DNA of 64,000 nt from assembly GCA_027066995.1 (NCBI GenBank), contig JAMOMQ010000166.1, positions 192 through 64,191 of the forward strand, in the 5' to 3' direction. The position numbers were made by a program, and so were the translations under genes. The notes under the pieces are model-generated. The model did not search any database. It saw only the letters and a program-made list of their open reading frames with translations, and was not told the origin of the DNA. The stretch is from Flavobacteriales bacterium (GTDB taxonomy: Bacteria; Bacteroidota; Bacteroidia; Flavobacteriales; Flavobacteriaceae). Positions 9,359-59,725 of this stretch are shown one piece after another; the first letter of the stretch is position 1; each line of letters starts with the position of its first letter.

Positions 9359-9393
9359 TATATTAGCTACATAAACATTTAAAACCTACCACT

Positions 9394-10079: not shown

Positions 10080-10115
10080 CAAGAATTTTGGGAAAAGATA
10101 GTTCCGAAAGAAGAT

Positions 10116-10298
10116 GTGGATACATGGAAAAATGCAGAATGCATGAGCAGTTCTTCAAGACCAACTTACACATATGAATTGAAAGACCATAAAATTAGAA
10201 TCGAACTTCATTGGAGGATTAAGTGTGATGGTCGAAAAATTTTTGAGAAAGATTACAGTGGCTATTATGACTTGAAAACAATGAAAATAGAAAAATAA
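10116..10298 (+). CDS. Hypothetical 60-aa ORF, in frame with 9699..10079 (possible 3' half of a disrupted gene)
   Basis: 10116-9699 = 417 = 3 x 139. The codons between the TGA and 10116 (QEFWEKIVPKEDV) are open. Confidence 0.35.
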   Translation: MDTWKNAECMSSSSRPTYTYELKDHKIRIELHWRIKCDGRKIFEKDYSGYYDLKTMKIEK

Positions 10299-10525
10299 CT
10301 ACAGGCAACAACAAATATACGGCATTTGGCAAGTAGTGCTAAAAATGAAGATGTTAGCAATAAATAAAATTAGTCCTAACTTGAAAACGAAATGTTTTAA
10401 ATTACCAAACGCCTCATATTCAAATCGTTAAATGTTATTAAGTAATAGAACCGGATACCTTAAAACATTATTTGCCATAATAAAATTCACCTTCCAACTG
10501 ACAATTTCTCTGTTTACAAAAACAG

Positions 10526-10558
10526 AAAAATCCGTTACTTAATTGCAACGGATTTTTT
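10526..10558. terminator. Bidirectional rho-independent terminator
   Basis: aaaaatccgtt-acttaattgc-aacggatttttt: a 9-bp stem flanked by A and T runs, between convergent genes. Confidence 0.7.
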
Positions 10559-10580
10559 AATTTCTACAAAAACCGGATAT

Positions 10581-11039
10581 TTATTTTTTTACAAGACCAA
10601 TCATTCTCTTAAAAAATGCAATGTCTCTATCCGGCTCACCATATCTGTAACCTGATATTTTTCCCAAAACTTTTTTACCATCCGGTGACACCGCTACAAA
10701 AGTCGGCACGCCACCCTTGTGATAGAGACCGGCCAATTTATAATTTTGAGCTCTTTGCTCTTTTGACATGGGCTTGCGTCTGGGAAAGTCCACCATTACC
10801 AAAACTACTTTACCGGCCAAATCAATAAATTCCTCATTATGAAATAAATCTCTGTGCATGGCTTTACAAGGCGGACACCAATCCGATCCGGTAAACAACA
10901 TGATGATGGGTTTGTGTTCTTTTTGGGCAATAGTTTTTGCTTGTTCAAAATCTGTCAACCAATTCAAATCCGTATGCGTTTCCTGAGCCGGCAATAGTGA
11001 CCAAGTTAAAAATAAAGTTAAAAGAAATAATTTTTTCAT
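10581..11039 (-). CDS. Secreted thioredoxin-fold protein
   Basis: Signal peptide, a WCPPCK active-site motif (CxxC) and a thioredoxin-like length of 152 aa. Confidence 0.8.
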   Translation of the reverse strand: MKKLFLLTLFLTWSLLPAQETHTDLNWLTDFEQAKTIAQKEHKPIIMLFTGSDWCPPCKAMHRDLFHNEEFIDLAGKVVLVMVDFPRRKPMSKEQRAQNYKLAGLYHKGGVPTFVAVSPDGKKVLGKISGYRYGEPDRDIAFFKRMIGLVKK

Positions 11040-11192
11040 AAATTAATGTTTTAAAAGTTGATAGTGATTTTTCAAAAATAATGCCAAAAATAACCATAAA
11101 ACACAAACATTATACAATATACCTACAAATTTCTTGTAAACATTTATTTTTTTTGTAATTTAGACCAATAAATTAACTAAAAAAGTCTTATT

Positions 11193-14024: not shown

Positions 14025-14441
14025 TCAAATCTCAAAAGACTTAAAAATACGGGCACTGGAACGTCCCGGTGCCTTAACTTCTATATCTAAAAAATAACCA
14101 AACGGGGTTTGCGTTGCCTTATAATCGGAATTTTGCAAACGTTGTTCTACCGCATCAAACAAATCTTTTGTCACGTGCGGATTGGCTTTACTATTAGACA
14201 AATGAGCAAACGAATGTAAAATAATATGCTTGGTTTCATTTTTTTTAGCCGCCCATTTTAGACTCTTAACCAATTTGGTTTCAAAATATTTCGAATTTGC
14301 TTCATCTTCCTTTTCCATTTGTATAAAACCTACCAAAACATTATCATAAGTTTTCGCCTCGGTAAAATCCGGTAAATCAAGTAAGGTTTTGATTTGTGGT
14401 TTATAAGCAAACCGGTCACAATAAATCATTAACAGTTTCAT
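14025..14441 (-). CDS. Free-standing homolog of the archaeal-type threonyl-tRNA synthetase editing domain (DTD-like fold)
   Basis: 138 aa. MKLLMIYCDRFAYK, VLVGFIQMEKEDE, HSFAHLSNSKANP and TPFGYFLDIEVKAPG match the blocks I recall from archaeal ThrRS N-terminal editing domains (MRVLLIHSDY.EYE, FAHLS, PFGYY). Confidence 0.6.
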   Translation of the reverse strand: MKLLMIYCDRFAYKPQIKTLLDLPDFTEAKTYDNVLVGFIQMEKEDEANSKYFETKLVKSLKWAAKKNETKHIILHSFAHLSNSKANPHVTKDLFDAVEQRLQNSDYKATQTPFGYFLDIEVKAPGRSSARIFKSFEI

Positions 14442-19669: not shown

Positions 19670-22654
19670 TTATTTTTTGGATTCCATATCCTGATTTTCT
19701 TTTGTCCAAAATTGATAAGGATTTATTTTGCCTTTGTGGTAATGATAATCATATTTCGGATTTTTTATAGCTTCGTAGATACGGCGTTGCACCTCACTAC
19801 GAATATTTAGTTTGTATAACAAGCGGTTGGTCATAGTAGGAAAAGTTCTGTTAGACAAGAAAATGTAAACAATTTGCTCTTCCGGATCTGCCCAAACCAT
19901 AGTGCCGGTAAATCCCTGATGTCCAAAACTTTTTGGGGATATTTCTTCAAATGTCGGTCCGGGTTGTCCCTTAAACTGCGGTTTGTCCCAACCCAATCCG
20001 CGGCGCACACTATCACGGGCAAAATACCGTTTGTTAAAAACCATCTCTGTAGTATCGGATATGTAACGTTTGCCGCCGTAATAGCCTTTGTTTAAGTGCA
20101 TTTGCATCAGTTTTGCCAAATCATTGGCACTACCAAATAAACCGGCATTACCTGATACACCGTTGAGTTGAGCAGCTCCCATATCATGCACATAGCCTCG
20201 CAAAACTTGATGCCGGAAATAGGTGTCATTTTCAGTAGGTGCAATACGATCGGCCGGAAATTTTCTCAATGGATTGTAAGTAACGGTGGTAGCACCGATG
20301 GGCTTGTAAAATAACGAATCGAGCAACTGATCCATACCATTGCCGGTTTTATCTTCAATGTATTTTTTAAACAAATAAAAAGGCAATCCACTGTAAACAT
20401 ATTTTCGTTCCTCGTATTGCGGCACTTTGGCAATAGTATCCCAAATATGTTCTAAAAAACTATGTTTCATATATAAGTTCCGTGCTACTTTAATATCATA
20501 AAGTTTGGAAGGTGAGGTATGATAATATTTTCGTAAAGGCTTTTTGGTTTTAGGATCAATGGTTTCCAAATAAAAAGGAATCCACGACTTGATTTTGGCA
20601 AAATGCGACAAAGCCTCTTTGACCGTAATAGTATCTTTGTTACTACCTTTGAGTAAAGGCATTAAATCGCCTAAACGGTCGTCCAATTGGTAATATCCCA
20701 AATCGTAGGCTTTCATCATCAGAGTGGTAGCCGCCAACACTTTGGTTACTGAAGCCAAATCGTATAAATCGCTAACTTTAACAGCTCGTTTTTTATCATA
20801 AGTTTGATAGCCGTAAGCTTTTTCAAAAATAACCTTACCGTTACGAGCTGCTAAAACCACCCCACCCGGAGCAGCCATAGTATCCATCATAAATTGCATC
20901 AATGAGTCTACGCGTTTTAATCGACGGCTATCCATTCCCACTTCCTCGGGTAAGCCGTAAGACAAACGGCTGACCGGTTTGGTAATTATACCTGTATGCA
21001 CCGGATATTTTTTACTGATACTAACCGGCAACTTGCCTATAAAAGGTAGCGCACCAAAAATCATTTGCGGCGATAGTTCTTGCGGATACCAATCGTTTTG
21101 GTAAGAAACTACAATAGCTTTTACGGGAATGTTGTCTGCCATGTCTATCAAACTATACGGTGAGGTAAATACATCTAAAACCGTAGGCTTATAAGTTGCT
21201 ATTTTATTTAAAATCAAACGCTCGTTTGTTGAAAATTTATAAGATTTCCAAGGCGTTGCCGACGATTTATGAAATCCGACTATGACCAAATCATAATTTC
21301 TTAATCGAGATGACACCTCTGAAGTATCTTTAACCGTCACTTTATCTACTATTGCATATTTATTTAAATATTTATGAAAAGTTTCTCCGTTATCATCTCC
21401 CAAAGGCACATACGCAATCTTTTGAGTAACGTCTTTAAGCGGCAAAATATTATCTTCATTTTTAACCAATGTAATGGCATTTTCAAAGGCTATTTGATTC
21501 AATAAAGAATCTTTGACAGTGGGTAAATATTGCTTTGTAGTGCGAGGCTGCCAATGCTGCAAACCCGCCCAATACTTGGCCATTAATATTTTCTTAACGG
21601 AAGCCGCCAGACGCGATTCGGAAATCAGTCCCGACTGATAAGCACTCTTAATTGCATTAACAGCTTTTTTAATTTCAACCGTGCCCAACAAAATATCATT
21701 GCCCGCCAAAAAAGCAGACAAATCAGCTACACCCGAAGGTGCATAGTCGGCTACTCCTTTCATATTCATGGCATCGGTAATTACCAAGCCTTCAAAACCC
21801 AATCTTTTTTTGAGCAAATCATCTACAACTTTGGGTGATAAAGTGGTAGGAATACCCATATATTCTATAGAAGGTATATTTAAATGAGCCACCATTACGC
21901 CTGTCAATCCCTTTGGAATCAATTTTTTATAAGGATATAATTCCACATCCCAAATTCTTTCGTAAGAAAAATTAACCGACGGCAAGGTTTTATGACTGTC
22001 TTGACTGGTATCGCCATGTCCCGGAAAGTGTTTGGCTGTTGTCAAAATACCTTCGTCTTGCAAAGCGCGCATCATCATATTGGCTTTTTTAGCAACATTT
22101 TCTTTATCTTCGCCAAAAGAGCGGTTGCCGATAATGGGGTTATCCGGATTGGTATTGATATCAACAACAGGCGAAAAATTCATTTGAAAACCAACATTGG
22201 CAGTTTGACGGCCGATTTGACGACCTATTTGATAAATAATACTGTCATTTTGTATTGCTCCAAGTGTCATATTCCAAGGAAACTTCGGCGTAGAATCTAA
22301 GCGCATGGCCAAACCCCATTCTGCATCTATGGCCGTTATAACCGGATATTTGGCATGAAGCTGTATATAGTTGTTTATAACTTGCTCATCGGAAGGATTT
22401 CCTTTTAAAAAAAAGAAATTGCCAATATGGAGACTGTCCAATAGATATTTAATTTTTGTTTTATTTTCGGAAGTATTATCCGAATCAATATAAGGCATAA
22501 ACAATTGACCGATACGTTCCTCCAATGTCATTTGATTGTATAAAGAATCCACCCATTTGAGTTGTTGTCTGTTTTTATATAAAGGATGCGGCTGTTGCGC
22601 TGATAATTTAAAAAACAAAAATAGACAGCCTATTAAAAAATAGCTTCTTTTCAT
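19670..22654 (-). CDS. GH3 beta-N-acetylhexosaminidase (NagZ-like) fused to a serine beta-lactamase/PBP4*-fold domain
   Basis: Signal peptide, a GH3 KHFPGHGDTSQDSH motif, and a C-terminal half with an SxxK motif (ASVTKVL) and class-C-like fold length. Confidence 0.85.
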   Translation of the reverse strand: MKRSYFLIGCLFLFFKLSAQQPHPLYKNRQQLKWVDSLYNQMTLEERIGQLFMPYIDSDNTSENKTKIKYLLDSLHIGNFFFLKGNPSDEQVINNYIQLHAKYPVITAIDAEWGLAMRLDSTPKFPWNMTLGAIQNDSIIYQIGRQIGRQTANVGFQMNFSPVVDINTNPDNPIIGNRSFGEDKENVAKKANMMMRALQDEGILTTAKHFPGHGDTSQDSHKTLPSVNFSYERIWDVELYPYKKLIPKGLTGVMVAHLNIPSIEYMGIPTTLSPKVVDDLLKKRLGFEGLVITDAMNMKGVADYAPSGVADLSAFLAGNDILLGTVEIKKAVNAIKSAYQSGLISESRLAASVKKILMAKYWAGLQHWQPRTTKQYLPTVKDSLLNQIAFENAITLVKNEDNILPLKDVTQKIAYVPLGDDNGETFHKYLNKYAIVDKVTVKDTSEVSSRLRNYDLVIVGFHKSSATPWKSYKFSTNERLILNKIATYKPTVLDVFTSPYSLIDMADNIPVKAIVVSYQNDWYPQELSPQMIFGALPFIGKLPVSISKKYPVHTGIITKPVSRLSYGLPEEVGMDSRRLKRVDSLMQFMMDTMAAPGGVVLAARNGKVIFEKAYGYQTYDKKRAVKVSDLYDLASVTKVLAATTLMMKAYDLGYYQLDDRLGDLMPLLKGSNKDTITVKEALSHFAKIKSWIPFYLETIDPKTKKPLRKYYHTSPSKLYDIKVARNLYMKHSFLEHIWDTIAKVPQYEERKYVYSGLPFYLFKKYIEDKTGNGMDQLLDSLFYKPIGATTVTYNPLRKFPADRIAPTENDTYFRHQVLRGYVHDMGAAQLNGVSGNAGLFGSANDLAKLMQMHLNKGYYGGKRYISDTTEMVFNKRYFARDSVRRGLGWDKPQFKGQPGPTFEEISPKSFGHQGFTGTMVWADPEEQIVYIFLSNRTFPTMTNRLLYKLNIRSEVQRRIYEAIKNPKYDYHYHKGKINPYQFWTKENQDMESKK

Positions 22655-22880: not shown

Positions 22881-24776
22881 ATGATTTTAACAAAAAAACA
22901 CTTGAATATTTTAGAAAAAGTATTCGACCACAAAATGAACAGTATAGATGCCTTGGAAGTTTTAAATGACGACCAAGATTTTTTATATTATGTGCAATTG
23001 GAACAAATGGGGTTGCTGCGTGAAGATGCAGATCATTTTTATTTGACTTATCCCGGAATGATGTTAATGGAAGCCTACCGGATGGCACAATATGACGGCA
23101 CTATGCCAGACTTCTCTCAATATGACGACGATTTTAAAATAGTAGGAAGCCGCATTATCAATATGCTTTATACTGCCGAAATGGCCAAAGGAAAAGTCAA
23201 TGAAATCATCCGTCCCAAGTTAGAAAAACGCGGCATGGTTGTCAATGGCATGCTAAGCGAATTTGGCAAAAAAGTTTTGGAAGTTTACGAGGAAGTAGAG
23301 CCTTACTTTTATGTGAACAAACCGCTTCAAGAATTTTTGAAAAAAACGTTGGTAGGGCCAGCACCTAAACGCGAGTTGCTCGATGCCGATAAATTTCAAA
23401 TTCTAGAAAGCGAAGCCTTAAGGCTGTTATCATTTTCTGCACCGGACGGCAATTATTATAACTTAAGCGGTGTGGGACAACAAATAAGAGCTTCCTTATT
23501 AAAAGGCGCTTTTTTCAAACCCATTACACAAGCTTATTTTGAAGCCTTATTCCAATTGACAGCCGGAGAAGACATCTCTGACGAACAATTAAAACAAGAT
23601 TTAATAGCGCAAGCTGTTATTGATACCGATGGTAACATTTTACCGGCCGGAGAACATTTACTGCGAGCCGGAGATTTATACTTCCACGGTTTTTATGACG
23701 AAGCCATGAGTATTGATATTGACGAGGTGGAATATGGTATTTTGGCCACCATTAAAGATATCAATGATAAAATGGCTCAAAATCCGGAAGAATTAGCAAC
23801 TAAAGAGCAAATAAAAAGTGAATTTATCGATAAAAAATTCAAAGAGGCTCAAGAGTTAAAAGAAAAATGGGGACGTCGCTTAAAAGAATTGCCTCAAATC
23901 AAACAAAAATATATAACTGAGCTTGAAAATGCCAAAACTGCCGAAGAATGGTTTAACAAAGTTTATGATTTTGATGCCGCTTTATTCGGTTTACACGGCT
24001 TTCATTTAATTGAACCGGAAATTAAAGACGACAAAATGTATTATAAACTGACCCAAGATGGTATGGAAGTTTATAACATACTTAAAGATCATCCGCGAGA
24101 AATACCGGCCGAAGCCGTTAAAGCAATCACTATAGGACGTCATCTGTTTTTTGCTCCCGACGGCCGTTGGGTAGAAAAAGCACAAAAAGCCAAAACCATA
24201 GAAACCGCACCGACACCAACCGGTCGTTTCTTTGCTCGCTTGGCTTACAGCAACAAAACACCTAACTTGACCAAATACGGATTGGAAGTCATGCAACCGC
24301 TACCTTATACTACCGGCATATATCTTAATGATTTGATGACTTATTTAAAAGATTACTCCAAGGAAGAAGTTATTCAGTTATTAGAAAAATTAGATGCCCG
24401 TGGTATGGTAAATATGTTCCCTAATGACATGATTATGTTAACCGAAGCCGGCCGTAAAGTCAAACATGCTACTTTGGGTATTTCCGGTGATATTAAATAT
24501 CCGGTAACCCCTCATATTATAGATGTTCTGCGCGCCTTATTAGAAGTAGGCAGTTTGTATGTCAAAGAAAGAAAAGTGCGTATATTACCGGATAACTGGA
24601 AAAAAGCCTTAAAATTGCTAAAAATGGATATGGAAACTTTTGAACAAACCTTGACCGTATTACGACGTGCCGGTTATATCGGCAAGGATTCTGTAAACGA
24701 AAACGGTTTGTTACTTATAGAAGCTGCCGAAATGTTAGAAGGTGGTGAATATGAATGGACTGAAATTGATTTCTAA
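22881..24776 (+). CDS. Conserved-looking hypothetical protein built from about seven winged-helix-like modules
   Basis: 631 aa, no signal peptide or TM segment. The recurring pattern is hydrophobic helix - G(L/M)(L/V) - x - (Y/M)xLTxxGxxxL, for example YLTYPGMMLMEAY, MLSEFGKKVLEVY, NLSGVGQQIRASL, KLTQDGMEVYNIL and MLTEAGRKVKHA. Confidence 0.5.
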   Translation: MILTKKHLNILEKVFDHKMNSIDALEVLNDDQDFLYYVQLEQMGLLREDADHFYLTYPGMMLMEAYRMAQYDGTMPDFSQYDDDFKIVGSRIINMLYTAEMAKGKVNEIIRPKLEKRGMVVNGMLSEFGKKVLEVYEEVEPYFYVNKPLQEFLKKTLVGPAPKRELLDADKFQILESEALRLLSFSAPDGNYYNLSGVGQQIRASLLKGAFFKPITQAYFEALFQLTAGEDISDEQLKQDLIAQAVIDTDGNILPAGEHLLRAGDLYFHGFYDEAMSIDIDEVEYGILATIKDINDKMAQNPEELATKEQIKSEFIDKKFKEAQELKEKWGRRLKELPQIKQKYITELENAKTAEEWFNKVYDFDAALFGLHGFHLIEPEIKDDKMYYKLTQDGMEVYNILKDHPREIPAEAVKAITIGRHLFFAPDGRWVEKAQKAKTIETAPTPTGRFFARLAYSNKTPNLTKYGLEVMQPLPYTTGIYLNDLMTYLKDYSKEEVIQLLEKLDARGMVNMFPNDMIMLTEAGRKVKHATLGISGDIKYPVTPHIIDVLRALLEVGSLYVKERKVRILPDNWKKALKLLKMDMETFEQTLTVLRRAGYIGKDSVNENGLLLIEAAEMLEGGEYEWTEIDF

Positions 24777-38717: not shown

Positions 38718-39668
38718 ATGATAAAAAAATTAATTCTCTTTTCCGGTTTACTTTTGTCTCAGATATTTTATGCACAAAATATATTGGGTATAGATGTGTC
38801 ACATCATCAAGGTTCTATTAACTGGACACTGGTAGCTAACGACGGTAAAGTTTTTGCTTATTGTAAATCTACCGAAGGTTTTACTTATGACGATCCCAAT
38901 TTTCAAACTTATATGACCAACGGACACAATGCCGGTGTGGTTATGGGTGCCTACCATTTTGCCCGTCCCGATAACAATAGTGCTATTGATGAAGCCAATC
39001 ATTTCTTGTCTGTAGCGGGTAATTATATCGGTGACGGCTACTTACCGCCGGTATTGGACTTTGAAGATCCTAACACATCTACACATTTGGATCAAATATA
39101 CAGCTCACAAGGATTGACCAATTGGATACAAACTTGGCTTAACAGAGTTGAAAGCGTCTCCGGTGTTAAACCTGTTATCTATACAAACAGCCATTATGCC
39201 AATTTTTTACAGAGTTCTTTAAATACTTATGGTTTGTGGATAGCCAAACCCGGCACCAGCCCCACTACACCTCCTACCAATATGGGAATTTGGAATGATT
39301 GGCAATTTAAACAATACTCATGGCAAGGTAATGTCAACGGCATATCCGGTTATGTCGATTTAGATGTTTTTAACGGCACAACTTCAGACTTCCTTAATTT
39401 AACGGCTCTTGACAATTTTACACAACAACCACTAAATATTTATCCCAATCCCGTTGAAAATATATTAAATTTAAAATTTGAAAATAATTTAACAATCAAG
39501 CAGTTGGATATTTATGACAGCAATGGCCGGTTGATAAAAAGCTTTTCCGGAAATTATAGCCAAATACCTGTAAATTCATTACAGCCAGGTTTTTATATTT
39601 TACATATCCAGACAAAAAATGGCAGAGATTTCAGACTCAAATTTATAAAAAAACAAGGCGTTTTATAA
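38718..39668 (+). CDS. GH25 muramidase (lysozyme) with a T9SS C-terminal sorting domain
   Basis: GIDVSHHQGSINW ... AYCKSTEG ... GAYHFARP is typical of GH25. C-terminal LNIYPNPVENILNL ... GFYILHIQTKNG ... KFIKK is a T9SS CTD. Confidence 0.85.
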   Translation: MIKKLILFSGLLLSQIFYAQNILGIDVSHHQGSINWTLVANDGKVFAYCKSTEGFTYDDPNFQTYMTNGHNAGVVMGAYHFARPDNNSAIDEANHFLSVAGNYIGDGYLPPVLDFEDPNTSTHLDQIYSSQGLTNWIQTWLNRVESVSGVKPVIYTNSHYANFLQSSLNTYGLWIAKPGTSPTTPPTNMGIWNDWQFKQYSWQGNVNGISGYVDLDVFNGTTSDFLNLTALDNFTQQPLNIYPNPVENILNLKFENNLTIKQLDIYDSNGRLIKSFSGNYSQIPVNSLQPGFYILHIQTKNGRDFRLKFIKKQGVL

Positions 39669-39806: not shown

Positions 39807-41378
39807 ATGAAAAACAAAATCCTTATAAACTTATTATTATTAATTGGTGTTCAATTGACTTTTAGCCAAAATAAAATTGATAATATCCAATTAAAATGGA
39901 GTCCGGTATTTAATGATCATAGAATGAATGCTTTTAAATATCTCGGAAAAGATACTCAAAATAACATTTATTTCAATCAAAAAGATTTTACTTCAAAAAG
40001 CAATTTTACTTCAAATTTATCTACTAAATTGAGCAAATTGAATAAAAATCTATTAAAAAAAGATTATAAAGTTAAGTTCGATAAAAAAACATATCCCATA
40101 TTTATGTTAATGTTGAATAAAGAATTGCACCTTATTTCAACAACAAAAGACAAAGAAAGACAAAAAACATTTTTTATAGATCAAACTATAAATAAAAAAT
40201 CTTTTAATGTAAGTAAGCAACAATCAAAATTAATTGAAATAGATTTTAAAAATGATAAAAAATATATCCTGTCCGATATTAAACATTATTTTTCGCCGGA
40301 TTCTACCAAACTATTAATTAAATATGTTTTTTCCGGAAAAGGAAAAGAAAAATTTTATCTTGGTTTACATGTTTTTGATACTAACTTGAACAAGTTGTGG
40401 GGGAAAAAAATACAGATGCCTGTCGTAAAAAGATATTTTAAGCTACTTGATTTCAAAGTTGATAATGACGGAAAAGTATTTGTATTAGGAAAAGTATACA
40501 AGAACAACAGAAAAAATGATTATTACCGTAAGAAAAAGAACTTCTATTTAACGGTTCTTGCCTATAATAATGGAAGCAAAATGAAAGAATATAAAATTAA
40601 CGGCCATCAAAATTTATTTGATGCTAAACTCAAAATCGGTAATGATTCAAACCTTATAATTAGTGGTCTTTATTCCAAAGATAAGTCTTTAGGTGCAGAC
40701 GGTTATTTTTTTATGAAGATAGACACTAAACAACAAAAAGTGTTATATAACAAATACGAAAAATTTAACTTGGACTTACTAACGGAAGGAATGGATGAAA
40801 AGGAAAAAAAGAAAACATTAAAATTAATTAAAAAAGATAAATTCAAAGGTTTGGAACACCAAATCATTAAAAATGTCGTAGCAAAACCTGATGGTGGTGT
40901 TATTATTTTTTCAGAATATAATCACTTTGAAGAGTCTTTAAATTTTTACAAGTATGGCACTTTTGATAAAAATGGGACTAAAGAGTTAAGTTTTTCGTAT
41001 GGTAATATTTTAATTTTAAATCTTGACGAAAAAGGAAATATTATTTGGCATAAGACTATTAATAAATTTCAATACGCAGAAAATCTATATATTAATGAAG
41101 CTATGTCTTTTATGGTGATTGATCGCAAAGATAAAATTTACATTATCTATAATGGTAAAGGAAAAACGCATAGAAAAAAAGATGCTATTACTAAGTTAAA
41201 AATAATTGATAAAGCTGACGGATCAGTTGACACCAAAGTATTATTTAAAATGAAAGATAAAAAAGTTTTGTTCATACCCAAGTTTAGTATAAAAATTGAT
41301 AAAGACGAATATATACTTGTTAACCATAATAAAGCAAAAAAATCTTATAGGTATGCAAAACTAAAATTTGTGGATTAG
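39807..41378 (+). CDS. Secreted Lys/Asn-rich hypothetical protein (AT-rich orphan)
   Basis: Signal peptide. 523 aa, very Lys-rich. Recurrent D-G-K/G-hydrophobic beta-strand patterns suggest a repeat/propeller-like fold. Noticeably more AT-rich than its neighbours (by eye). Confidence 0.6.
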   Translation: MKNKILINLLLLIGVQLTFSQNKIDNIQLKWSPVFNDHRMNAFKYLGKDTQNNIYFNQKDFTSKSNFTSNLSTKLSKLNKNLLKKDYKVKFDKKTYPIFMLMLNKELHLISTTKDKERQKTFFIDQTINKKSFNVSKQQSKLIEIDFKNDKKYILSDIKHYFSPDSTKLLIKYVFSGKGKEKFYLGLHVFDTNLNKLWGKKIQMPVVKRYFKLLDFKVDNDGKVFVLGKVYKNNRKNDYYRKKKNFYLTVLAYNNGSKMKEYKINGHQNLFDAKLKIGNDSNLIISGLYSKDKSLGADGYFFMKIDTKQQKVLYNKYEKFNLDLLTEGMDEKEKKKTLKLIKKDKFKGLEHQIIKNVVAKPDGGVIIFSEYNHFEESLNFYKYGTFDKNGTKELSFSYGNILILNLDEKGNIIWHKTINKFQYAENLYINEAMSFMVIDRKDKIYIIYNGKGKTHRKKDAITKLKIIDKADGSVDTKVLFKMKDKKVLFIPKFSIKIDKDEYILVNHNKAKKSYRYAKLKFVD

Positions 41379-51506: not shown

Positions 51507-53468
51507 ATGAATCAAAACAATGCAAATATTACCAAAAGAAGTATGACCGTTTTTGCGGGCTTATTCTTGTTTGCAATACTCATTGTCATACAATTGATTC
51601 GCATACAATATATTGACGGCAATAAATACCGTGCTTTGGCTCAAAAATATACCGTAAAAGAATTTACCATTAAGGCCAATCGCGGTAATATTTATACTGC
51701 AAAAGGTAATATTTTGGCAACTTCTGTTCCAAAATATGATATCGCTTTTGACCCGACCGCACCTTCTACCAAAAACTTCAATCGTTATATTGACGGCTTG
51801 TGTGTGCAATTATCAAGATTTACAGGTAAACCGCAAGCCCAATGGAAAAGAGCTTTTGTCAAGGCACGTCAAAATAACCGGAAATATATCAAAGTAGCCA
51901 AAGGCATTGACTACTCCGATTATCAACGTATTAAAAAATTCCCGTTATTCAAATTAGGTATGAATAAAGGCGGATTTATAGCCGAATTGCACAGCGAACG
52001 CAGTTATCCTCTCGGGGGAGTGCTCAAACGCACCATCGGTTTTGATCGTGGTAAAGGCAACCGTGCCGGTATTGAAGGCGCCTATGCTACTTACTTACGT
52101 GGTAAAGACGGCATGCAAAAAAAACAAAAAATAAAATATGGCGTTTGGAAACCTTTAAGCGACATAAATGATATTGAACCGCAAGACGGTTACGATGTGA
52201 TTACTAATATCGATATTGACATGCAAGATATGGCACATCAAACCTTGCTAAAACAATTGCAAAAATTTGAAGCCGACCATGGCAGCTTGGTCATCATGGA
52301 TGTCAAAACCGGTGCTGTCAAAGCAATGGTCAATTTGGGCAAAACACAATCGGGGCGTTATGAAGAACTTAGAAATTATGCCGTTTACGAAACACACGAA
52401 CCCGGTTCCACCTTTAAACTTTTTTCGGTAATGGCATTGCTCGAAGACAAAGTGGCTGACACCTCCGATATCGTTGATACCGGCAAGGGCGTTTACCAAA
52501 TTTATAACAAGCGGGTCCGCGATGCCCACCATGGCGGCATGGGTAAACTTACCCTAAAACAAGTGCTTGAAAAAAGCTCAAATGTAGGTGTCGTTAAAAT
52601 GGTATATGAACATTATAAAGACCATCCTGAAAAATTTGTAAACCGCCTCTATAATTTCGGCATTCACGAAAAAGTAAAAATTGACATCAAAGGAGAAGGG
52701 CAACCACATATTCCGGACCCCAAAGATGACAATTGGAGTGGTATTTCTTTACCCTGGATGGCTTACGGATACGGTGTGGAATTAACCGATATACAAATTT
52801 TAACTTATTATAATGCCATTGCCAATAACGGTAAGGTTATGAGACCTTATCTGGTTCAACAAATCAAATCCTTTGATAAGACCATCAAAAAATTTAAACC
52901 CGAAGTGTTAAATCATTCGCTGGCTTCAAAAGAAACAATCGGTAAAATGCAAGACATGCTCAAGGGGGTTGTTTTGCGTGGCACCGCTACCAATATTAAA
53001 AATCCGTATGTCAGCATAGCCGGTAAAACAGGCACGGCACAAACCGAATATTGGAAAGGTAAAGGACAATACATTGCTTCATTTGTAGGTTATTTTCCGG
53101 CTGAACAACCAAAATATTCCATGATAGTGGTGATACACAAACCCAATCCGGAAAAAGGCTACTACGGCAATATTGTAGCTGCCCCTGTCTTTAAAACACT
53201 TGCCGAATATATTTACGGCAAAACCCCTCGTAAAGTTGAACTTGCCGAAGCCCGTAGTCAAACCGAAACAAAAACCGAAAAAATAGCACAAAAATATAAA
53301 ACCGTGATGCCCGATTTACACGGAATGCCATCAAAAAGTGCTGTATATATTTTAGAAAACATGGGATTAAAAGTACGCCTGAACGGTAGTGGCAAAGTGG
53401 CAAAACAATCGATTCCAAGAGGTATAAAAGTCAAAAAAAATCAAGTAGTTGAACTTAAATTAATATGA
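51507..53468 (+). CDS. ftsI: Penicillin-binding protein 3 / peptidoglycan D,D-transpeptidase FtsI, with a C-terminal PASTA domain
   Basis: SxxK (GSTFKL), SxN (KSSNVG) and KTG (GKTGTA) motifs, plus a C-terminal PASTA-like MPDLHGM...LKVRLNGSGKV. Confidence 0.93.
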   Translation: MNQNNANITKRSMTVFAGLFLFAILIVIQLIRIQYIDGNKYRALAQKYTVKEFTIKANRGNIYTAKGNILATSVPKYDIAFDPTAPSTKNFNRYIDGLCVQLSRFTGKPQAQWKRAFVKARQNNRKYIKVAKGIDYSDYQRIKKFPLFKLGMNKGGFIAELHSERSYPLGGVLKRTIGFDRGKGNRAGIEGAYATYLRGKDGMQKKQKIKYGVWKPLSDINDIEPQDGYDVITNIDIDMQDMAHQTLLKQLQKFEADHGSLVIMDVKTGAVKAMVNLGKTQSGRYEELRNYAVYETHEPGSTFKLFSVMALLEDKVADTSDIVDTGKGVYQIYNKRVRDAHHGGMGKLTLKQVLEKSSNVGVVKMVYEHYKDHPEKFVNRLYNFGIHEKVKIDIKGEGQPHIPDPKDDNWSGISLPWMAYGYGVELTDIQILTYYNAIANNGKVMRPYLVQQIKSFDKTIKKFKPEVLNHSLASKETIGKMQDMLKGVVLRGTATNIKNPYVSIAGKTGTAQTEYWKGKGQYIASFVGYFPAEQPKYSMIVVIHKPNPEKGYYGNIVAAPVFKTLAEYIYGKTPRKVELAEARSQTETKTEKIAQKYKTVMPDLHGMPSKSAVYILENMGLKVRLNGSGKVAKQSIPRGIKVKKNQVVELKLI

Positions 53469-54952
53469 TAAAATTACAAAACATATTAGAAGATATTAAA
53501 ATTATCAAGCAATCTGCGCCCGCTGATATTAATATTAACCATATTCAATATGACTCACGTCAAGTGCAATCCGGTGATGTGTTTGTGGCTATAAAAGGTA
53601 TCAATACCGACGGACATCAATATATTGATAAGGCTATTGATAAAGGAGCTATCGCTGTTGTTGTAGAAAAACGGATTGATAATCTGCCTAATAATATTTT
53701 GCAAATACAAGTTGATGATTCACATCGGGCTTTATCTGTAATGGCATCCAATTATTATGGTCGGCCGTCAGAACAACTAAAACTAGTCGGTGTGACAGGC
53801 ACCAATGGCAAAACAACCACAGCCAGCTTAGCTTACAAACTCTTTAAAAAAGCCGGATATAAAGCCGGTTTATTGTCCACTGTTGCCATTTTAATAGACG
53901 GCAAGACTTACCCGGCCACACATACAACACCCGATCCGCTCGTGATTAATTATTATTTGGATCAAATGCTTAAAGCCGGCGTTACTCATGTATTTATGGA
54001 AGTCAGTTCGCACGGATTGGATCAGAAACGAACGGCAGGCCTAAACTTTGACGGCGGAGTATTTACCAATTTGACACATGATCACCTGGATTATCATGAA
54101 ACATTTATCAATTACCGTAATACCAAAAAACTTTTCTTTGATCAATTGTCCAAAGATGCTTTTGCTTTAGTCAATGCCGATGACAAAAACGGCCTGTTTA
54201 TGCTACAAAATACCGCTGCCCGCAAATTGACTTATGCCCTGAAAAATCCGGCAGATTACAAAGCCAAAATTTTGGAACAAAATTTTTCAGGTATGTTACT
54301 AACAATCAATAACATGGAAGTTTGGGTACGATTGGTGGGACGTTTCAATGCTTATAACATATTGGCGGTCTTTGGCATTGCCGACCAATTGGGTATGGAG
54401 CCTTTTGACATATTACAAATTATCAGTGAATTGCACAGTGTTGACGGTCGTTTTGAATTGATTTTATCACCCGAAGGTAAAATAGCCATAGTAGATTATG
54501 CACATACACCCGATGCTTTGGAAAATGTCTTAAAAACCATCAATGACATACGACCCAACAACAACGAAAAACTGATTACTGTAGTGGGTGCCGGTGGCAA
54601 TAGAGACAAAACCAAACGTCCGGAAATGGCTGAAGTGGCCTCCCGGTTGAGTAATAGTGTCATATTTACTTCTGACAATCCGAGAGATGAAGTGCCCGAC
54701 CAAATCATAGACGATATGGAAGCAGGCGTACCGCCCGAACATTACAAAAAAACATTGCGGATTACCGACCGCCGCCAAGCCATAAAAGCAGCTGCCGCCT
54801 TGGCCAACACCGGCGATATTATTTTAATAGCTGGTAAAGGTCATGAAGACTATCAAATCATAAAAGGGGTCAAACAACATTTTGACGACCGTGAAGAAAT
54901 AAAAAAAGCATTCGGATTAATAAAAGAACAAGGCAACAGCCTAACAAAATAA
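53465..54952 (+). CDS. murE: UDP-MurNAc-L-Ala-D-Glu:meso-DAP ligase
   Basis: GVTGTNGKTT P-loop and a DNPR motif (DAP specificity). Full length, 495 aa. Confidence 0.93.
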   Translation: MIKLQNILEDIKIIKQSAPADININHIQYDSRQVQSGDVFVAIKGINTDGHQYIDKAIDKGAIAVVVEKRIDNLPNNILQIQVDDSHRALSVMASNYYGRPSEQLKLVGVTGTNGKTTTASLAYKLFKKAGYKAGLLSTVAILIDGKTYPATHTTPDPLVINYYLDQMLKAGVTHVFMEVSSHGLDQKRTAGLNFDGGVFTNLTHDHLDYHETFINYRNTKKLFFDQLSKDAFALVNADDKNGLFMLQNTAARKLTYALKNPADYKAKILEQNFSGMLLTINNMEVWVRLVGRFNAYNILAVFGIADQLGMEPFDILQIISELHSVDGRFELILSPEGKIAIVDYAHTPDALENVLKTINDIRPNNNEKLITVVGAGGNRDKTKRPEMAEVASRLSNSVIFTSDNPRDEVPDQIIDDMEAGVPPEHYKKTLRITDRRQAIKAAAALANTGDIILIAGKGHEDYQIIKGVKQHFDDREEIKKAFGLIKEQGNSLTK

Positions 54953-54958
54953 AGAATT

Positions 54959-56179
54959 ATGTTATATTACTTTTTTCAACATATATGGCCTGATTTTCCC
55001 GGTGCGGGATTGTTCAACTACCTGTCATTCCGGTCGGGAATGGCTTTTGTAACCGCCTTGTTATTTTCTTTGTTGGTGGGTAAAAAAATCATAGGCCGGT
55101 TAAGACAATTGCAAATTGGTGAAACAGTGCGTGACTTGGGTCTGGAAGGTCAAAAATCTAAGGAAGGCACACCCACCATGGGAGGCATTATCATTATTTT
55201 GGCCACCTTGATTCCGGTGTTACTATTCAACGATTTAAAAAATATTTACATCCAACTTTTACTTATCACGTTAATTTGGATGGGATTTATAGGTTTTACC
55301 GATGATTACATCAAGGTCATCAAAAAAAACAAAGAAGGTTTGGCCGGTAAATTCAAAATTCTGGGACAAATAAGCTTAGGTGTAGTCATTGGCAGTGTCA
55401 TGTTAATTAATGAAAATATTACCATTCGGACCGAAGACTTTTCCGCCCAAACACAACAAGTTCAAAAAAAATTGGGTGAAAATTTTCGACCGGCAGAAAA
55501 ATCACTCAAAACCACCATTCCTCTTTTCAAAAACAATGAGTTCAATTATGAAAACATTCTGAAAAGCCTCAAATCATCGTGGGCAAAATATACATGGTTA
55601 CTATTCATACTGATTGTTATATTTATAATTACGGCCGTATCCAATGCCGCCAATTTAACCGACGGTATAGACGGTCTGGCAGCCGGCACTTCTGCCATTA
55701 TCATATTGGCTTTGGCTCTTTTAGCTTGGATATCCGGCAATATTATGATATCCGATTATCTTAATATCATGTATATCCCCGGTATTGGTGAGGTATCTGT
55801 ATTTATAAGTGCTTTTGCCGGTGCATTAATCGGATTTTTATGGTTCAATGCCTACCCGGCACAAGTTTTTATGGGTGATACCGGAAGCTTAACCATTGGC
55901 GCTATTATTGCCGTTGTTGCTTTATTTATCCGCAAAGAATTATTGATACCGGTATTGGCAGGTATTTTTGTCATTGAAAACGCTTCGGTAATCATTCAAC
56001 GTTTTTGGTTTAAATATACCAAAAAACGCTATGGCGAAGGAAGGCGGGTTTTTAAAATGGCCCCTATTCACCATCATTTTCAAAAATTAGGTTGGCACGA
56101 AAACAAAATAGTTATTCGCTTTTGGATAGTCGGAATAATTCTGGCAGCCATTAGTATCATCAGTTTAAAGGTAAGATAA
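54959..56179 (+). CDS. mraY: Phospho-N-acetylmuramoyl-pentapeptide transferase
   Basis: 406 aa, 10 TM segments. [25 protein letters not shown] and APIHHHF motifs. Confidence 0.95.
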
Positions 56180-56199
56180 TAAGAAAAGATTGACCAAGT

Positions 56200-56721
56200 A
56201 TGCAAACACAAACAAATCATAAAAATTTAGCCGCTATGACAGCACAATTATTACAGAATCGACGGCGAACATTGAAAAAACCCTTTCAATCGTTTATCAA
56301 TGTACCTCATAGAATGCAGCAGGTTCGTGTCAAAAATGGCGTTGTTTTTATCAACGATTCAAAAGCTGAAAATGTCAATGCAACCTATTTTGCCCTGCAA
56401 AGCATTAAAAAACCGGTGATATGGATTGCCGGCGGAGACGATTCAAATACCAATTATTGGGAATTGATGTCCTTGGTGCGTCAAAAAGTATCGCATATAA
56501 TCATGATTGGACAAAACAATGACCGTTTATATCAATTATTTGCTCCTGTTATAGACCATATTTATAAGGTAAAAACAATGCGTGAAGCAGTACAGCTAAG
56601 CTACCAGTTTGCAGAACAAGGTTGCAGTGTATTATTATCTCCGGCTTGCAAACCGGATTATGCTTTTGTAGATTATCGAGACCGCGGAGAACAATTTATT
56701 AAAGCCGTTAATAAATTATAA
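56200..56721 (+). CDS. murD: MurD C-terminal-domain-only ORF (truncated murD; remnant or neofunctionalised fragment)
   Basis: 173 aa. PHRMQQV..NGVVFINDSKAENV, WIAGGDDSNTNY and LLSPACKPDYAFVDYRDRGEQF align to the MurD C-terminal domain only. There is no N-terminal Rossmann domain and no GxxGKT central domain, and only 20 nt separate it from the mraY stop. Confidence 0.75.
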   Translation: MQTQTNHKNLAAMTAQLLQNRRRTLKKPFQSFINVPHRMQQVRVKNGVVFINDSKAENVNATYFALQSIKKPVIWIAGGDDSNTNYWELMSLVRQKVSHIIMIGQNNDRLYQLFAPVIDHIYKVKTMREAVQLSYQFAEQGCSVLLSPACKPDYAFVDYRDRGEQFIKAVNKL

Positions 56722-56722
56722 A

Positions 56723-57913
56723 ATGATAAAATTTATAAAGAACATATCAGGCGACCGACAATTATGGGTTTATACCATATTATTAATGCTATTTTCATTT
56801 TGGATTGTTTATAGTGCCAGTAGTAATTTGGCCAATGTTTACGGAAAATCGTCCCCCTTATTTTTTGGCATTAAACACTTTATACATGTTTCTATCGGTT
56901 TCTTGATTATTTTCTTTACGCACAAATTCAATCCGAAATACTTTTCTCATTTATCACGGATTGCTATGCCCGTTATAGTTGTGGTTTTATTATTTACATT
57001 AACCCGTGGTATGACTATGGGAGGTGCCAATGCCAGTCGTTGGATTCATTTGCCCGGACTGGGCAGTGTGCAACCATCTACTATTGCTTTTGTGTTTTTA
57101 ATGATGTTTAGCGCCCGCTTTTTTGGCAAAAACGATTTGAGTAAAATAGGTTTTATCGAAAGTATCAAAAGGTATTGGATATGGGTGTTTGCCGTAGTAG
57201 GACTAATATTACCTGCCAATTTGTCAACAGCGGTATTAATATTTGCCATGGTGGTTTTAATCAGCATTATAGCAGGTTATCCGTTTAAAGATTTGTTCAA
57301 AGTTTTTGGTATCAGTATGCTGGGAGTGATATTTCTAATTTTGGTTTTAAAAGCTTTTCCCAACAGAATGTCTAACCGTTTGGACACTTGGCAAAGCCGT
57401 ATTGAAAGCTTTTTTGATTCGTCAGACAACTCAAAAGAAATAAAGTTAGATGATAAAAATTATCAAAAAACGCAAGCAAAAATTGCGATAGCCAAAGGCG
57501 GTTTGTTTGGGTTTAGACCGGGCAAAAGCGTGCAAAAAAACTTTTTACCGCAATCGGTTTCTGATTTTATCTATGCCATTATTATTGAAGAATACAGTTT
57601 GACCGGCGGCCTAATCATCTTGTTTGTGTATTTGCTATTAGGATTACGAATGTTTTTTGTAGCTAAAAAAACGCCCGACAGATATTACAAACTCTTGGTA
57701 TTGGCGGTGGGGCTTCCCATTATTGTGCAAGCATTGGCTAATATGGCTGTAGCGGTAGGTTTGTTTCCGGTTACGGGACAGCCTTTACCACTATTGAGTT
57801 CCGGAGGCACGGCCATTTGGATGAGTAGTTTTGCTATTGGCGTCATCTTAAGTGTCAGTCGTGTAACCGAACAAAAAGAACAAAAAGATTTAGATGATTT
57901 TATAACAGAATAA
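56723..57913 (+). CDS. ftsW: SEDS-family peptidoglycan glycosyltransferase FtsW
   Basis: 396 aa, about 10 TM segments. SDFIYAIIIEE and PLPLLSSGGT motifs. Confidence 0.92.
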   Translation: MIKFIKNISGDRQLWVYTILLMLFSFWIVYSASSNLANVYGKSSPLFFGIKHFIHVSIGFLIIFFTHKFNPKYFSHLSRIAMPVIVVVLLFTLTRGMTMGGANASRWIHLPGLGSVQPSTIAFVFLMMFSARFFGKNDLSKIGFIESIKRYWIWVFAVVGLILPANLSTAVLIFAMVVLISIIAGYPFKDLFKVFGISMLGVIFLILVLKAFPNRMSNRLDTWQSRIESFFDSSDNSKEIKLDDKNYQKTQAKIAIAKGGLFGFRPGKSVQKNFLPQSVSDFIYAIIIEEYSLTGGLIILFVYLLLGLRMFFVAKKTPDRYYKLLVLAVGLPIIVQALANMAVAVGLFPVTGQPLPLLSSGGTAIWMSSFAIGVILSVSRVTEQKEQKDLDDFITE

Positions 57914-57919: not shown

Positions 57920-59026
57920 ATGAACCCCAGTAATCGACATATAAAGGTAATTATAAGCGGCGGAGGAACCGGCGGACATATTTTTCCGGCTTTGGCTATT
58001 GCCAACGAAATCAAAAACCGGTATCCCCATGCCGATATTCTTTTTGTAGGTGCCAAAGGCCGTATGGAAATGGAAAAAATTCCGGCACACGGCTACCCTA
58101 TTAAAGGCTTATGGATATCCGGTATCAATCGTTCTAAAATGTGGAAAAATATCACATTCCCTTTTAAATTGATTTCAAGCATCTGGAATGCCAAAAAAAT
58201 CATCAAAAATTTTAAGCCTGATATGGTTATAGGCACCGGAGGATTTGCCAGTGGACCCGTATTGTATGCCGCCCAACAAAAAGGTATTCCCACTTTTATA
58301 CAAGAACAAAATTCGTATCCGGGCATTACCAATAAATTACTGGCCAAAAAAGCCCGTAAAATTTATACGGCCTATGACGGACTGGAGCGCTTTTTTGATG
58401 CAGATAAAATTGTCAAAACAGGCAATCCTGTCCGGCAAAACCTTATAAATACCAATGTGGAAAAAAATAAAGCCTTACAATATTTTGGGCTCAAACCTCA
58501 GTATAAAACCATATTGTCTATTGGAGGTAGTCTGGGAGCACATCCTCTTAACGAAGGCATTAAAGATATTTTGAATCAAATCAGACAAAACAATTACCAA
58601 TTGATATGGCAAACCGGCCCCAATGATTATGAAAATTATAAAAATTTAAGTGACGATAAGATAAAAGTAATGCCATTTATAACTGAAATGCAAAATGCCT
58701 ATACCGCAGCCGATCTTATTATTTCGCGTGCTGGTGCCGGCACCATTTCCGAATTGACATTGATAGGTAAACCGGTTATATTGGTGCCTTCACCCTATGT
58801 AGCTGAAGACCATCAAACAAAAAATGCCAAAGCTCTGGAAACTAAAAAAGCGGCTGTTCTGATACCTGAAAAAAAATTGCAAACAGAACTTTGGCCCGGC
58901 ATAAAAAGAATATTTGAAAATGAAGAAGAAGCGCAGTTATTAAAACAAAACATCAAAGCTTTGGCGCAACCCGAAGCTGTTCAAAATATAGTAGATGATA
59001 TACTCAGAAGCATAAGTAAAAAGTAA
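57920..59026 (+). CDS. murG: UDP-GlcNAc:lipid I N-acetylglucosaminyltransferase
   Basis: SGGGTGGHIFPALA N-terminus and a GT28 C-terminal block (RAGAGTISEL). Confidence 0.95.
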   Translation: MNPSNRHIKVIISGGGTGGHIFPALAIANEIKNRYPHADILFVGAKGRMEMEKIPAHGYPIKGLWISGINRSKMWKNITFPFKLISSIWNAKKIIKNFKPDMVIGTGGFASGPVLYAAQQKGIPTFIQEQNSYPGITNKLLAKKARKIYTAYDGLERFFDADKIVKTGNPVRQNLINTNVEKNKALQYFGLKPQYKTILSIGGSLGAHPLNEGIKDILNQIRQNNYQLIWQTGPNDYENYKNLSDDKIKVMPFITEMQNAYTAADLIISRAGAGTISELTLIGKPVILVPSPYVAEDHQTKNAKALETKKAAVLIPEKKLQTELWPGIKRIFENEEEAQLLKQNIKALAQPEAVQNIVDDILRSISKK

Positions 59027-59725
59027 ATGAAACAAACATTTATAATCATAGCAACCTTATTCTTGTTTATCCTGACATTGGTGTTAGGCCGGTATTTTAA
59101 TGCTGTTTCGCAACAAGAACGTATACAACAAACACAGGTTTATGTCTTTCCTATGGACAAAACTTTTATACTGCCTCAAGAGGTTTCCAAACTTATGCCT
59201 ATAAATGATAGTGTGTATAAACAGATAGATATTGCCGCCATTGAAAAACAATTGGAACAAAATGCTTATATTGACAATGCCGAGGTATATAAAGATTTGA
59301 ACGGCCGGTTAACAGCCGAAATTTCTCAATACAAACCAATTGCCAGAGTCATTGGAAACAAATCATATTATATTGACTATCAAGGAAATAAAAAACCATT
59401 GTCTGACCACTATACCGAAAATGTTATTTTAATATTTGGCGATATAAATAGCAATATTAAAAAACAGCTCATTAACTTAATACATCAAATAGAAAGCGAC
59501 CCGAATTTAAAACAAATAATTTCGGAAGTGCATATTAATGATAAACAGGTTGTAATCAAAACCGATCAATTGTCAGCAGATATCAGCATTGATATACTAC
59601 AAAATATTGATAAACAACTGGATAAATTAAAAGCCATTTATAGCTATTTGGTCAAAACAAATAAAACCAATCAATATCAAAAAATAGATTTAAGATTTAA
59701 AAATCAAGCAGTTTGCAAAAAATAA
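59027..59725 (+). CDS. ftsQ: Cell division protein FtsQ
   Basis: N-terminal TM helix, a POTRA-like region, and a position upstream of ftsA. Confidence 0.8.
   Translation: MKQTFIIIATLFLFILTLVLGRYFNAVSQQERIQQTQVYVFPMDKTFILPQEVSKLMPINDSVYKQIDIAAIEKQLEQNAYIDNAEVYKDLNGRLTAEISQYKPIARVIGNKSYYIDYQGNKKPLSDHYTENVILIFGDINSNIKKQLINLIHQIESDPNLKQIISEVHINDKQVVIKTDQLSADISIDILQNIDKQLDKLKAIYSYLVKTNKTNQYQKIDLRFKNQAVCKK

Follow-up and report, generated by a model that had tools for sequence, protein, structure and literature searches.

A stand-alone MurD C-terminal domain gene between mraY and ftsW in uncultured Flavobacteriales and other Bacteroidota

Introduction

What is a gene for the last third of MurD doing where a whole murD gene is expected? 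The question is raised by a 64,000-nucleotide stretch of DNA from an uncultured Flavobacteriales bacterium (GCA_027066995.1, contig JAMOMQ010000166.1, positions 192 to 64,191; hereafter the window), whose division and cell wall (dcw) gene cluster carries a short open reading frame (ORF) between mraY and ftsW that resembles only the C-terminal domain, or domain 3, of MurD. MurD catalyzes a step of peptidoglycan synthesis that is regarded as universal, essential and the work of a single polypeptide, and it is an antibiotic target. A preliminary description of the window, made from the letters alone, left a choice between a decaying relic and a domain retained for another role. Here we describe this gene, which we call MurD-C, and present evidence that it encodes a protein under selection whose pocket for D-glutamate (D-Glu) has been rebuilt, and that other Bacteroidota have undergone the same truncation independently.

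Results

MurD-C corresponds to domain 3 of MurD

MurD-C is encoded on the plus strand at 56200..56721 (173 amino acids plus stop, ATG start), 20 nt past the end of mraY (56179) and 1 nt before the ATG of ftsW (56723), exactly where the preliminary description had placed it. Its sole Pfam match is Mur_ligase_C (PF02875; E = 1.1e-11, 46.1 bits with a gathering threshold of 28.4), which lies at residues 37-150 and covers the profile fully (1-127), so MurD-C is a member of this domain family. The NCBIfam model of murD, TIGR01087, matches over profile positions 277-440 of 441 (E = 8.4e-40); the score of 137.2 bits is under the full-length cutoff of 211.95 bits that marks a MurD equivalog, because MurD-C covers no more than the final third of the model. 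When solved MurD structures were searched with a family profile, they matched at residues ~290-446 only (E = 3e-23). In addition, an AlphaFold2 model built with 34 homologues reached a mean predicted local distance difference test score (pLDDT) of 87, with the core above 90, and superposed in Foldseek on domain 3 of MurD (7U35) with a template modeling (TM) score of 0.75 and a root-mean-square deviation of 1.5 Å over 144 columns. The first 33 Foldseek ranks are all MurD structures. By profile and predicted fold, the short ORF is homologous only to domain 3 of MurD, which bears out the earlier assignment and leaves no room for an ORF without MurD homology. The N-terminal Rossmann domain that binds uridine diphosphate (UDP) and the central ATPase domain with its GxxGK[ST] P-loop are missing, and MurD-C alone can therefore be no ligase. 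In databases, such genes are named ‘MurD’, ‘cyanophycin synthetase’, ‘glutamate ligase domain-containing protein’ or ‘hypothetical’.

MurD-C is under purifying selection in clade A

The window belongs to an uncultured Flavobacteriales clade, which we call clade A and whose genome records are Flavobacteriales or Flavobacteriaceae metagenome-assembled genomes (MAGs). A search of 5.8 billion proteins yielded ~45 proteins of 160-178 amino acids with 50-98% identity to MurD-C, many of them on contigs of 40-124 kb. In every clade-A context that we examined, the short gene lies between mraY and ftsW, and murC is absent. An alignment of 34 clade-A sequences, with identity down to 50%, has 29 invariant and 27 nearly invariant columns and a mean column identity of 69%, and the reading frame is intact in all 34. 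The ratio of nonsynonymous to synonymous substitution rates (dN/dS, Nei-Gojobori) of MurD-C is 0.06-0.2, with synonymous sites saturated in most pairs. For comparison, dN/dS is 0.09-0.2 for murG and 0.03-0.10 for mraY, ftsW and murE (mraY alone, 0.03-0.08), the near-identical L001/L008 pair being left out. Relative to the divergence of MraY and FtsW, MurD-C changes at 1.4-2.0 times their rate, as against 0.66-0.95 times for domain 3 of full-length MurD; judged from these rates, MurD-C is clearly constrained yet somewhat accelerated.

These comparisons, which the preliminary description had proposed as a check, show that MurD-C is a functional, conserved gene under purifying selection across clade A. 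They speak against the decaying relic, and a single-genome oddity is likewise contradicted by the same gene at the same place in the whole Flavobacteriales clade and in other lineages.

The D-Glu site is rebuilt while the nucleotide-facing residues are kept

We compared clade A with 73 full-length Bacteroidota MurD sequences, in which 57 columns of the domain-3 region are at least 95% conserved (residue numbers are those of E. coli MurD). Clade A is altered at 17 of these 57 columns, and the changes are concentrated in the remnant of the central domain and in the D-Glu site. The remnant is the N-terminal tail of MurD-C (residues 1-30; 56200..56289, plus strand, as are all motifs below), which corresponds to a degenerate last helix of the central domain. 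It is modeled with a pLDDT of 50-70 and a helix at residues 3-25, and family members of 160 amino acids are without most of it. Within this region G265, H267 and A274 are altered and the adjoining N268 is relaxed too, whereas all four are invariant in full-length MurD; MurD-C has thus lost the G265/H267/N268 motif of the canonical enzyme.

The D-Glu site carries T321E, K348 to A, T or S, changes at G349, D417, L418 and E423, and N350T, A414K, S415P and F416D; V346D is a further change specific to clade A and conserved there. These changes fall in three short motifs, all as listed in the preliminary description. In the NDSKAEN loop (residues 52-58, MurD 316-322; 56353..56373), Asp317 and Lys319 are kept while position 321 has Glu instead of Thr in 91% of the clade. 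In GGDDSNTNY (residues 78-86, MurD 344-352; 56431..56457), V346D is joined by the loss of Lys348, the relaxed G349 and N350T. In SPACKPD (residues 147-153, MurD 410-416; 56638..56658), the start of SPACKPDYAF (residues 147-156), A414K, S415P and F416D are conserved in the clade and 417-418 are relaxed. T321, K348, S415 and F416 are each present in 72-73 of the 73 full-length sequences, and the window protein has E, S, P and D in their place, so that none of the D-Glu-binding residues of the MurD ligase (Thr321, Lys348, Ser415, Leu/Phe416) is found in MurD-C. D-Glu mimetics are held through hydrogen bonds from K348, T321 and S415 to their carboxylates (PMC3527612), Lys348 binds the D-Glu carboxylate (PMC3527612; PMC8788868), and K348, A414 and L416 adjoin D-Glu, with position 348 influencing substrate choice (PMC8788868).

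The altered positions are of two kinds. Positions 348, 349, 417, 418, 423 and H301 are now variable in clade A. Others are newly fixed, namely E321 (91%), K414 (97%), D416 (100%) and P415, which is present in all eight distinct clade-A loci examined (the window, L001, L003, L005-L007, L009 and L085; L008 and L010 are near-duplicates of L001 and L003), and in addition F293, F328, W353, I369 and P382. Kept as in the enzyme are R302, N316, D317, K319, N322, N324, K337, P338 and W341 as well as G344, G345, D347, Y352, S410, P411, R425, G426 and F429. Among these, R302, D317 and K319 (R38, D53 and K55 of MurD-C) are 97-100% conserved in clade A; in the hinge H37-R38 (His301-Arg302; 56308..56313) the Arg is present in 34/34 clade members and the His is relaxed. 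Arg302 is the hinge ‘molecular handle’ that touches the ADP alpha-phosphate in closed MurD (PMC4816537), and Lys319 is near ADP (PMC8788868). MurD-C is predicted to retain the fold of domain 3, and it keeps these ATP-facing residues.

As a separate observation, four full-length MurD proteins of 444-501 amino acids (P0415, P0436, P0501 and P0513) have D, S or A at 348, with N350 and K414, indicating that Lys348 is not universal even among three-domain enzymes.

The same truncation recurs across Bacteroidota

Stand-alone MurD C-domain genes of ~181-204 amino acids also lie between mraY and ftsW in further Bacteroidota lineages. On long contigs we found short murD genes at this position in clade B (P0093 with loci L086-L088, Bacteroidales; P0252 with L097; P0454 with L101), clade C (P0069), clade D (P0106; L091/L092), P0307 (contigs of 0.2-1 Mb) and P0459 (L100). 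MAGs with a short gene include GCA_054008475.1, GCA_028699335.1, GCA_964643225.1, GCA_040436515.1 and GCA_964647485.1 and the assemblies to which contigs JALWTX010000001.1, JAMONO010000056.1, JALVKK010000310.1, JALVST010000109.1, JAMOVT010000050.1 and WFZY01000188.1 belong, and one short-form hit bears the label Lentimicrobiaceae. A profile search of 1.84 billion representatives returned ~25 further divergent short forms among the best 150 matches; several of those looked up are on long contigs, with up to 50 cluster members. Many ‘short’ matches of 182 amino acids turned out to be contig-end pieces of full-length genes, which keep H267/N268 (L073, for instance, runs off its contig). We therefore counted short forms only if they are on long contigs or are without the H267/N268 motif of the central domain, whose loss distinguishes genuine short forms from such pieces.

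In a neighbor-joining tree of MurE, MraY and FtsW, the truncated lineages are interleaved with full-length ones. Clades A and B each have 100% bootstrap support, clade D groups with the canonical locus L040 at 94% and P0459 with the canonical locus L075 at 90%, whereas support is 0% each for the monophyly of all Bacteroidales-like short forms, of A and B, and of A and D. Since the tree is interleaved and two lost domains are not plausibly regained, the truncation happened in Bacteroidota on at least five independent occasions, each time between mraY and ftsW and each time sparing domain 3.

Two details of these loci may be added. Independent truncations (P0069, P0106, P0307 and others) share their start, a conserved Met inside canonical MurD (‘M-x-I/L-x-x-L-A-L-Q-G-K-H-N’); either the deletions repeatedly fused the old start region there, or the Met was already an internal start in the full-length genes. 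In clade D, no ftsW is called 3’ of the short murD of L091 (~8252-9621), but the near-identical assembly L092 has ftsW, and its absence from L091 is probably a frameshift or an assembly error.

Pocket changes converge in two lineages

Clade B is altered at 15 of the 57 near-invariant columns, and 10 of these overlap with those of clade A where 4.5 would be expected (hypergeometric P = 6e-4). Five of the overlapping columns have the same derived residue in both clades, including T321E, S415P and F416D, and P0252 and P0253 also share A414K with clade A. We considered horizontal transfer as the origin of this likeness and rejected it, because clades A and B are only 40-47% identical, below the identity of either to canonical MurD C-domains, and the flanking-gene tree gives no support for A with B. 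The pocket of clade D is intermediate (T321V, K348T, F416Y). The full canonical D-Glu pocket is kept in clade C, where L089 and L093 differ by 97 synonymous and 29 nonsynonymous changes, and in several other truncated lineages. R302 and D317 are kept in almost all short-form representatives, and K319 in nearly all, including those with a scrambled pocket. The pocket after truncation is thus either left intact or rebuilt in a repeatable way, and neutral decay is not what is seen.

Gene neighborhood and the rest of the pathway

The short gene is part of a Bacteroidota-type dcw cluster on the plus strand, with mraZ (from 49752), rsmH (from 50269), ftsL (from 51201) and ftsI (from 51507) followed by murE (53465..54952), mraY (54959..56179, 406 amino acids, directly 5’ of the short ORF), ftsW (56723..57913, 396 amino acids, directly 3’ of it), murG (57920..59026), ftsQ (59027..59725), ftsA (from 59726) and ftsZ (from 61294). 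MurE (495 amino acids), the three-domain ligase that adds meso-diaminopimelate and whose substrate is the MurD product, matches the NCBIfam equivalog NF001126 with 626 bits (cutoff 373), and Pfam finds all three Mur domains in it. The neighbors had been described as full length, and murE, mraY, ftsW and murG are so. The earlier picture of the cluster was right about the short murD and overlooked a second irregularity: murG ends at 59026 and ftsQ starts at 59027, so that the two genes abut and the murC expected between them is absent. Base composition is even along the cluster. A scan of the region for sigma-70 promoters and terminators gave nothing informative, the consensus being ill-suited to Bacteroidota.

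Among the loci compared, murC occupies the murG-ftsQ position in 67/67 informative loci with full-length murD, and it is absent from all clade-A loci. It is out of the cluster in three truncated lineages, A, D (L091/L092) and P0459 (L100), and in the cluster in the others. In part of clade B it is murG that is out of the cluster, with ftsW followed directly by murC in P0093 (L086-L088, ~8554-11072), and the clade-B relatives P0252 (L097) and P0454 (L101) keep both genes. We found no cluster loss of murC or murG beside a full-length murD in these loci. In the truncated lineages MurC, MurE and MurG evolve at normal relative rates, with no abnormality that would be a sign of one of them taking over the MurD step. 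MurE, MraY, MurG, FtsW and FtsI are canonical and constrained, indicating that a D-Glu-adding activity is still needed.

Three window genes at 38718-39668 (plus strand), 896-2119 (minus) and 19670-22654 (minus) have to do with scavenging or recycling. They are a glycoside hydrolase family 25 (GH25) muramidase with a sorting tail of the type IX secretion system (T9SS), which indicates that it is secreted, a transporter of the major facilitator superfamily (MFS) that resembles AmpG or RhtX below the curated cutoffs, and a 994-amino-acid fusion of a NagZ-like glycoside hydrolase family 3 (GH3) domain with a beta-lactamase/PBP4B-like domain.

Elsewhere in the window, a free-standing ORF of 138 amino acids (14025-14441, minus strand) matches Pfam tRNA-Thr_ED (E = 1.7e-34) and an NCBIfam Ser-tRNA(Thr) hydrolase model (E = 1e-9); tRNA-Thr_ED is the ‘archaea-specific’ editing domain of threonyl-tRNA synthetase and is unusual in a bacterium. 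A 631-amino-acid protein (22881-24776, plus strand) matches DUF505 from end to end (E = 1e-155), and two ORFs on the plus strand, 7679-9358 and 39807-41378 (559 and 523 amino acids), have no Pfam or NCBIfam match.

Searches for the missing catalytic domains

We used a hidden Markov model (HMM) of the N-terminal and central domains, built from the 73 full-length MurD sequences, and it matched only MurE/MurC among all window ORFs and in the flanks of the short-form loci L001-L010 and L085-L092 (up to 10 kb per side, less at contig ends). With an N-terminal plus central query from L040, the sister of clade D, none of the best 120 protein matches stops at the domain boundary, a result that is uninformative because the list is crowded with full-length MurD; one match of 361 amino acids without the C-domain is on a 1.4-kb contig and looks cut by the contig end. 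A Bacteroidales profile of the same two domains, run on JGI metagenome contigs, found 76/76 complete ORFs to be full length in the canonical mraY-ftsW context, with four further ORFs cut by contig ends, and this negative is weak since the seed motifs are canonical. There is no relocated murD among ~145 sampled Bacteroidota murD loci, for which the seeds would miss very divergent copies. In these searches, C-only proteins are common, and genes with only the N-terminal and central domains or relocated genes were not seen, although a divergent or foreign copy would escape; this weighs weakly against simple gene fission or a relocated canonical murD. The D-Glu-adding activity must come from a gene outside the 64-kb window.

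Discussion

A proposed subunit or adaptor of precursor synthesis

From the retained and the rebuilt residues we tentatively favor a reading in which MurD-C is a non-canonical subunit or adaptor that docks on a partner by way of its nucleotide-facing surface. [quoted passage not shown] The remaining protein would no longer present D-Glu as MurD does. Its likeliest partner would be a Mur-type ATP-binding module or the assembly of Mur enzymes at MraY and MurG, and in the cytoplasmic synthesis of peptidoglycan precursors it would serve as a subunit or adaptor that is either non-catalytic or re-specified. The new acidic and basic residues of the pocket may form an internal charge network in place of a bound ligand. 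That the domain was retained for another role, the second option of the preliminary description, stands as far as it goes, with the D-Glu contacts replaced by conserved new residues and other motifs invariant.

MurD-C shares with MurD the homology and predicted fold of domain 3 and the slot between mraY and ftsW, and it keeps Arg302, Asp317, Lys319 and the motifs NDSKA-N, GG-D, LLSPA and RG--F; it differs in the two missing domains, in the replaced T321, K348, S415 and (L/F)416, and in its score (137 vs 212 bits). With pseudoenzymes and other retained non-catalytic domains it has in common a domain from a catalytic family that is under selection after the loss of substrate contacts. A docking role would be in keeping with reports that Mur ligases bind one another, MurC and MurD binding MurE-MurF with a dissociation constant of about 0.7 uM (PMC10214165). 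In those multi-enzyme assemblies binding is known, whereas for MurD-C we infer it. Our literature searches turned up neither a free-standing domain 3 of a Mur ligase in the role of a subunit nor any account of MurD proteins, or of Mur-ligase C-domain proteins, that are truncated, split or stand alone. The ‘truncated MurD’ of the MigC paper, which we considered as a precedent, is a yeast two-hybrid construct and irrelevant here.

The known non-canonical D-Glu step is that of MurD2/MurL, in which positions 348, 414 and 416 are part of the Glu recognition site (PMC8788868). MurD2 carries K348R and A414P, and P0093 of clade B has the same two changes. However, MurD2 is a full-length three-domain ligase, unlike MurD-C, and MurD2/MurL has been reported only from some Gamma- and Alphaproteobacteria and rare actinobacteria, not from Bacteroidota (PMC8788868). 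In our locus the ORF is domain 3 only and the scanned neighbor ORFs hold no Mur ligase but MurE; MurL, a protein without a known conserved domain, was not searched for. MurT/GatD and Mpl share a distant Mur ligase C-domain fold with MurD-C (Foldseek E about 1e-5 to 1e-4), but they are multi-domain enzymes with 10-17% identity, and MurD-C is clearly derived from MurD.

Several points weigh against an adaptor. R302, D317 and K319 could be conserved because they stabilize the fold and not because of docking. P0069, P0307, P0259, P0294, P0331, P0333 and P0363 keep the whole canonical D-Glu pocket under strong purifying selection, and such lineages fit a still-catalytic split enzyme better than an adaptor; for MurD-C of the window, a split enzyme with an altered substrate is also conceivable. 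Moreover, our negative searches cover the window and the locus flanks, and complete genomes may hold a full-length murD, an N-terminal plus central fragment, or neither.

Other explanations

A split MurD is possible, if unlikely. Here the N-terminal and central half would be encoded elsewhere, MurD-C would supply domain 3 in trans, and an amino acid would still be ligated to UDP-MurNAc-L-Ala; in clade A, where the pocket is rebuilt, that amino acid might be recognized differently or be a different one. The three residues that in MurD are turned toward the central domain's ATP site (PMC4816537), Arg302, Asp317 and Lys319, are invariant, and the canonical MurE requires the MurD product. The canonical pocket kept by several independently truncated lineages under strong purifying selection, as seen in the L089 and L093 pair, is difficult to account for if the domain no longer handles D-Glu. 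Against this, no N-terminal plus central match beyond MurE/MurC was found in the window or in the short-form flanks, and neither the best 120 protein matches nor the 76 complete metagenome ORFs included a protein ending at the domain boundary, while C-only proteins were common. The substrate residues of the retained fragment, which a split enzyme should conserve, are conserved in P0069 and P0307 but not in clade A, in which four contacts of D-Glu (K348, G349, D417 and L418) are free of constraint. As for the source of the D-Glu step itself, there is a similarly low chance that a non-homologous or very divergent enzyme performs it, or that another Mur ligase (e.g. MurC) lends its N-terminal and central module to MurD-C in trans.

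We consider it unlikely that a foreign or divergent full-length MurD elsewhere took over and that the resident C-domain was kept for a ligand-sensing or regulatory role, with a precursor or a nucleotide as the ligand. An essential gene could be truncated only once redundancy existed, the new pocket residues are conserved rather than merely decayed and are convergent in clades A and B, and a rate about twice that of canonical C-domains is consistent with a change of function. Yet the ~145 sampled loci held no relocated murD, with the same proviso for very divergent copies, and our analyses suggested no ligand.

It is improbable that MurC and MurD activities are missing altogether, with precursors made from scavenged muropeptides or peptides by an Mpl-like ligase or another route and the C-domain kept for an unrelated reason. 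This would fit the absence of murC from the cluster here, in clade D and in P0459 but in 0/67 canonical loci, and the window does encode the secreted GH25 muramidase, the AmpG-like MFS transporter and the GH3 fusion. However, MurE is a canonical equivalog under strong constraint and would be redundant if a tripeptide were ligated directly. A murC simply located elsewhere is the simpler explanation, other truncated lineages keep murC in the cluster, and recycling genes are common in Bacteroidota.

It is very improbable that MurD-C is the remnant of a pseudogene in decay, or a spacer that persists only because it carries cis-acting signals or couples translation to ftsW. MurD-C has indeed lost two of three MurD domains as well as the canonical pocket, and it evolves faster than canonical C-domains do. 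But the features of a pseudogene, such as frame disruption, a dN/dS near 1 or a lack of conservation across species, are not seen: the frame is intact in every member, selection against amino acid change is evident with saturated synonymous sites, 29 residues do not vary among sequences as little as 50% identical, the fold is predicted with confidence, and the same domain has been kept independently at least five times. Conservation of a cis element would not preserve the protein sequence. Lastly, the chance that an assembly or binning artifact deleted about 800 bp of murD is negligible, even though the sources are metagenome assemblies, because independent assemblies from NCBI, ENA, JGI and Logan show identical junctions, as do the eight clade-A loci from separate assemblies and diverged species, and base composition is uniform across the cluster.

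Implications

Short genes of this kind are labeled as ‘MurD’ among other names, and reconstructions of peptidoglycan synthesis from Bacteroidota MAGs may therefore count MurD as present by mistake. That the pocket changed convergently in two unrelated lineages provides a concrete experimental handle. If the D-Glu step were indeed carried out by a divergent enzyme or with a lent module, the stand-alone domain would be the outward sign that a step held to be ‘invariant’, and targeted by antibiotics, has a variant not described before, and clades A and B would have been convergently re-engineered to recognize something other than free D-Glu.

In summary, the catalytic two-thirds of MurD have been deleted repeatedly, with the last domain remaining under selection and the rest of the lipid II pathway looking normal. 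This could mean that a Mur ligase can work split or with a borrowed module, that domain 3 has a second, ligation-independent job in precursor synthesis or at the divisome, or that there is an unrecognized route to the MurD product; each of these options would alter how the Mur pathway is annotated.

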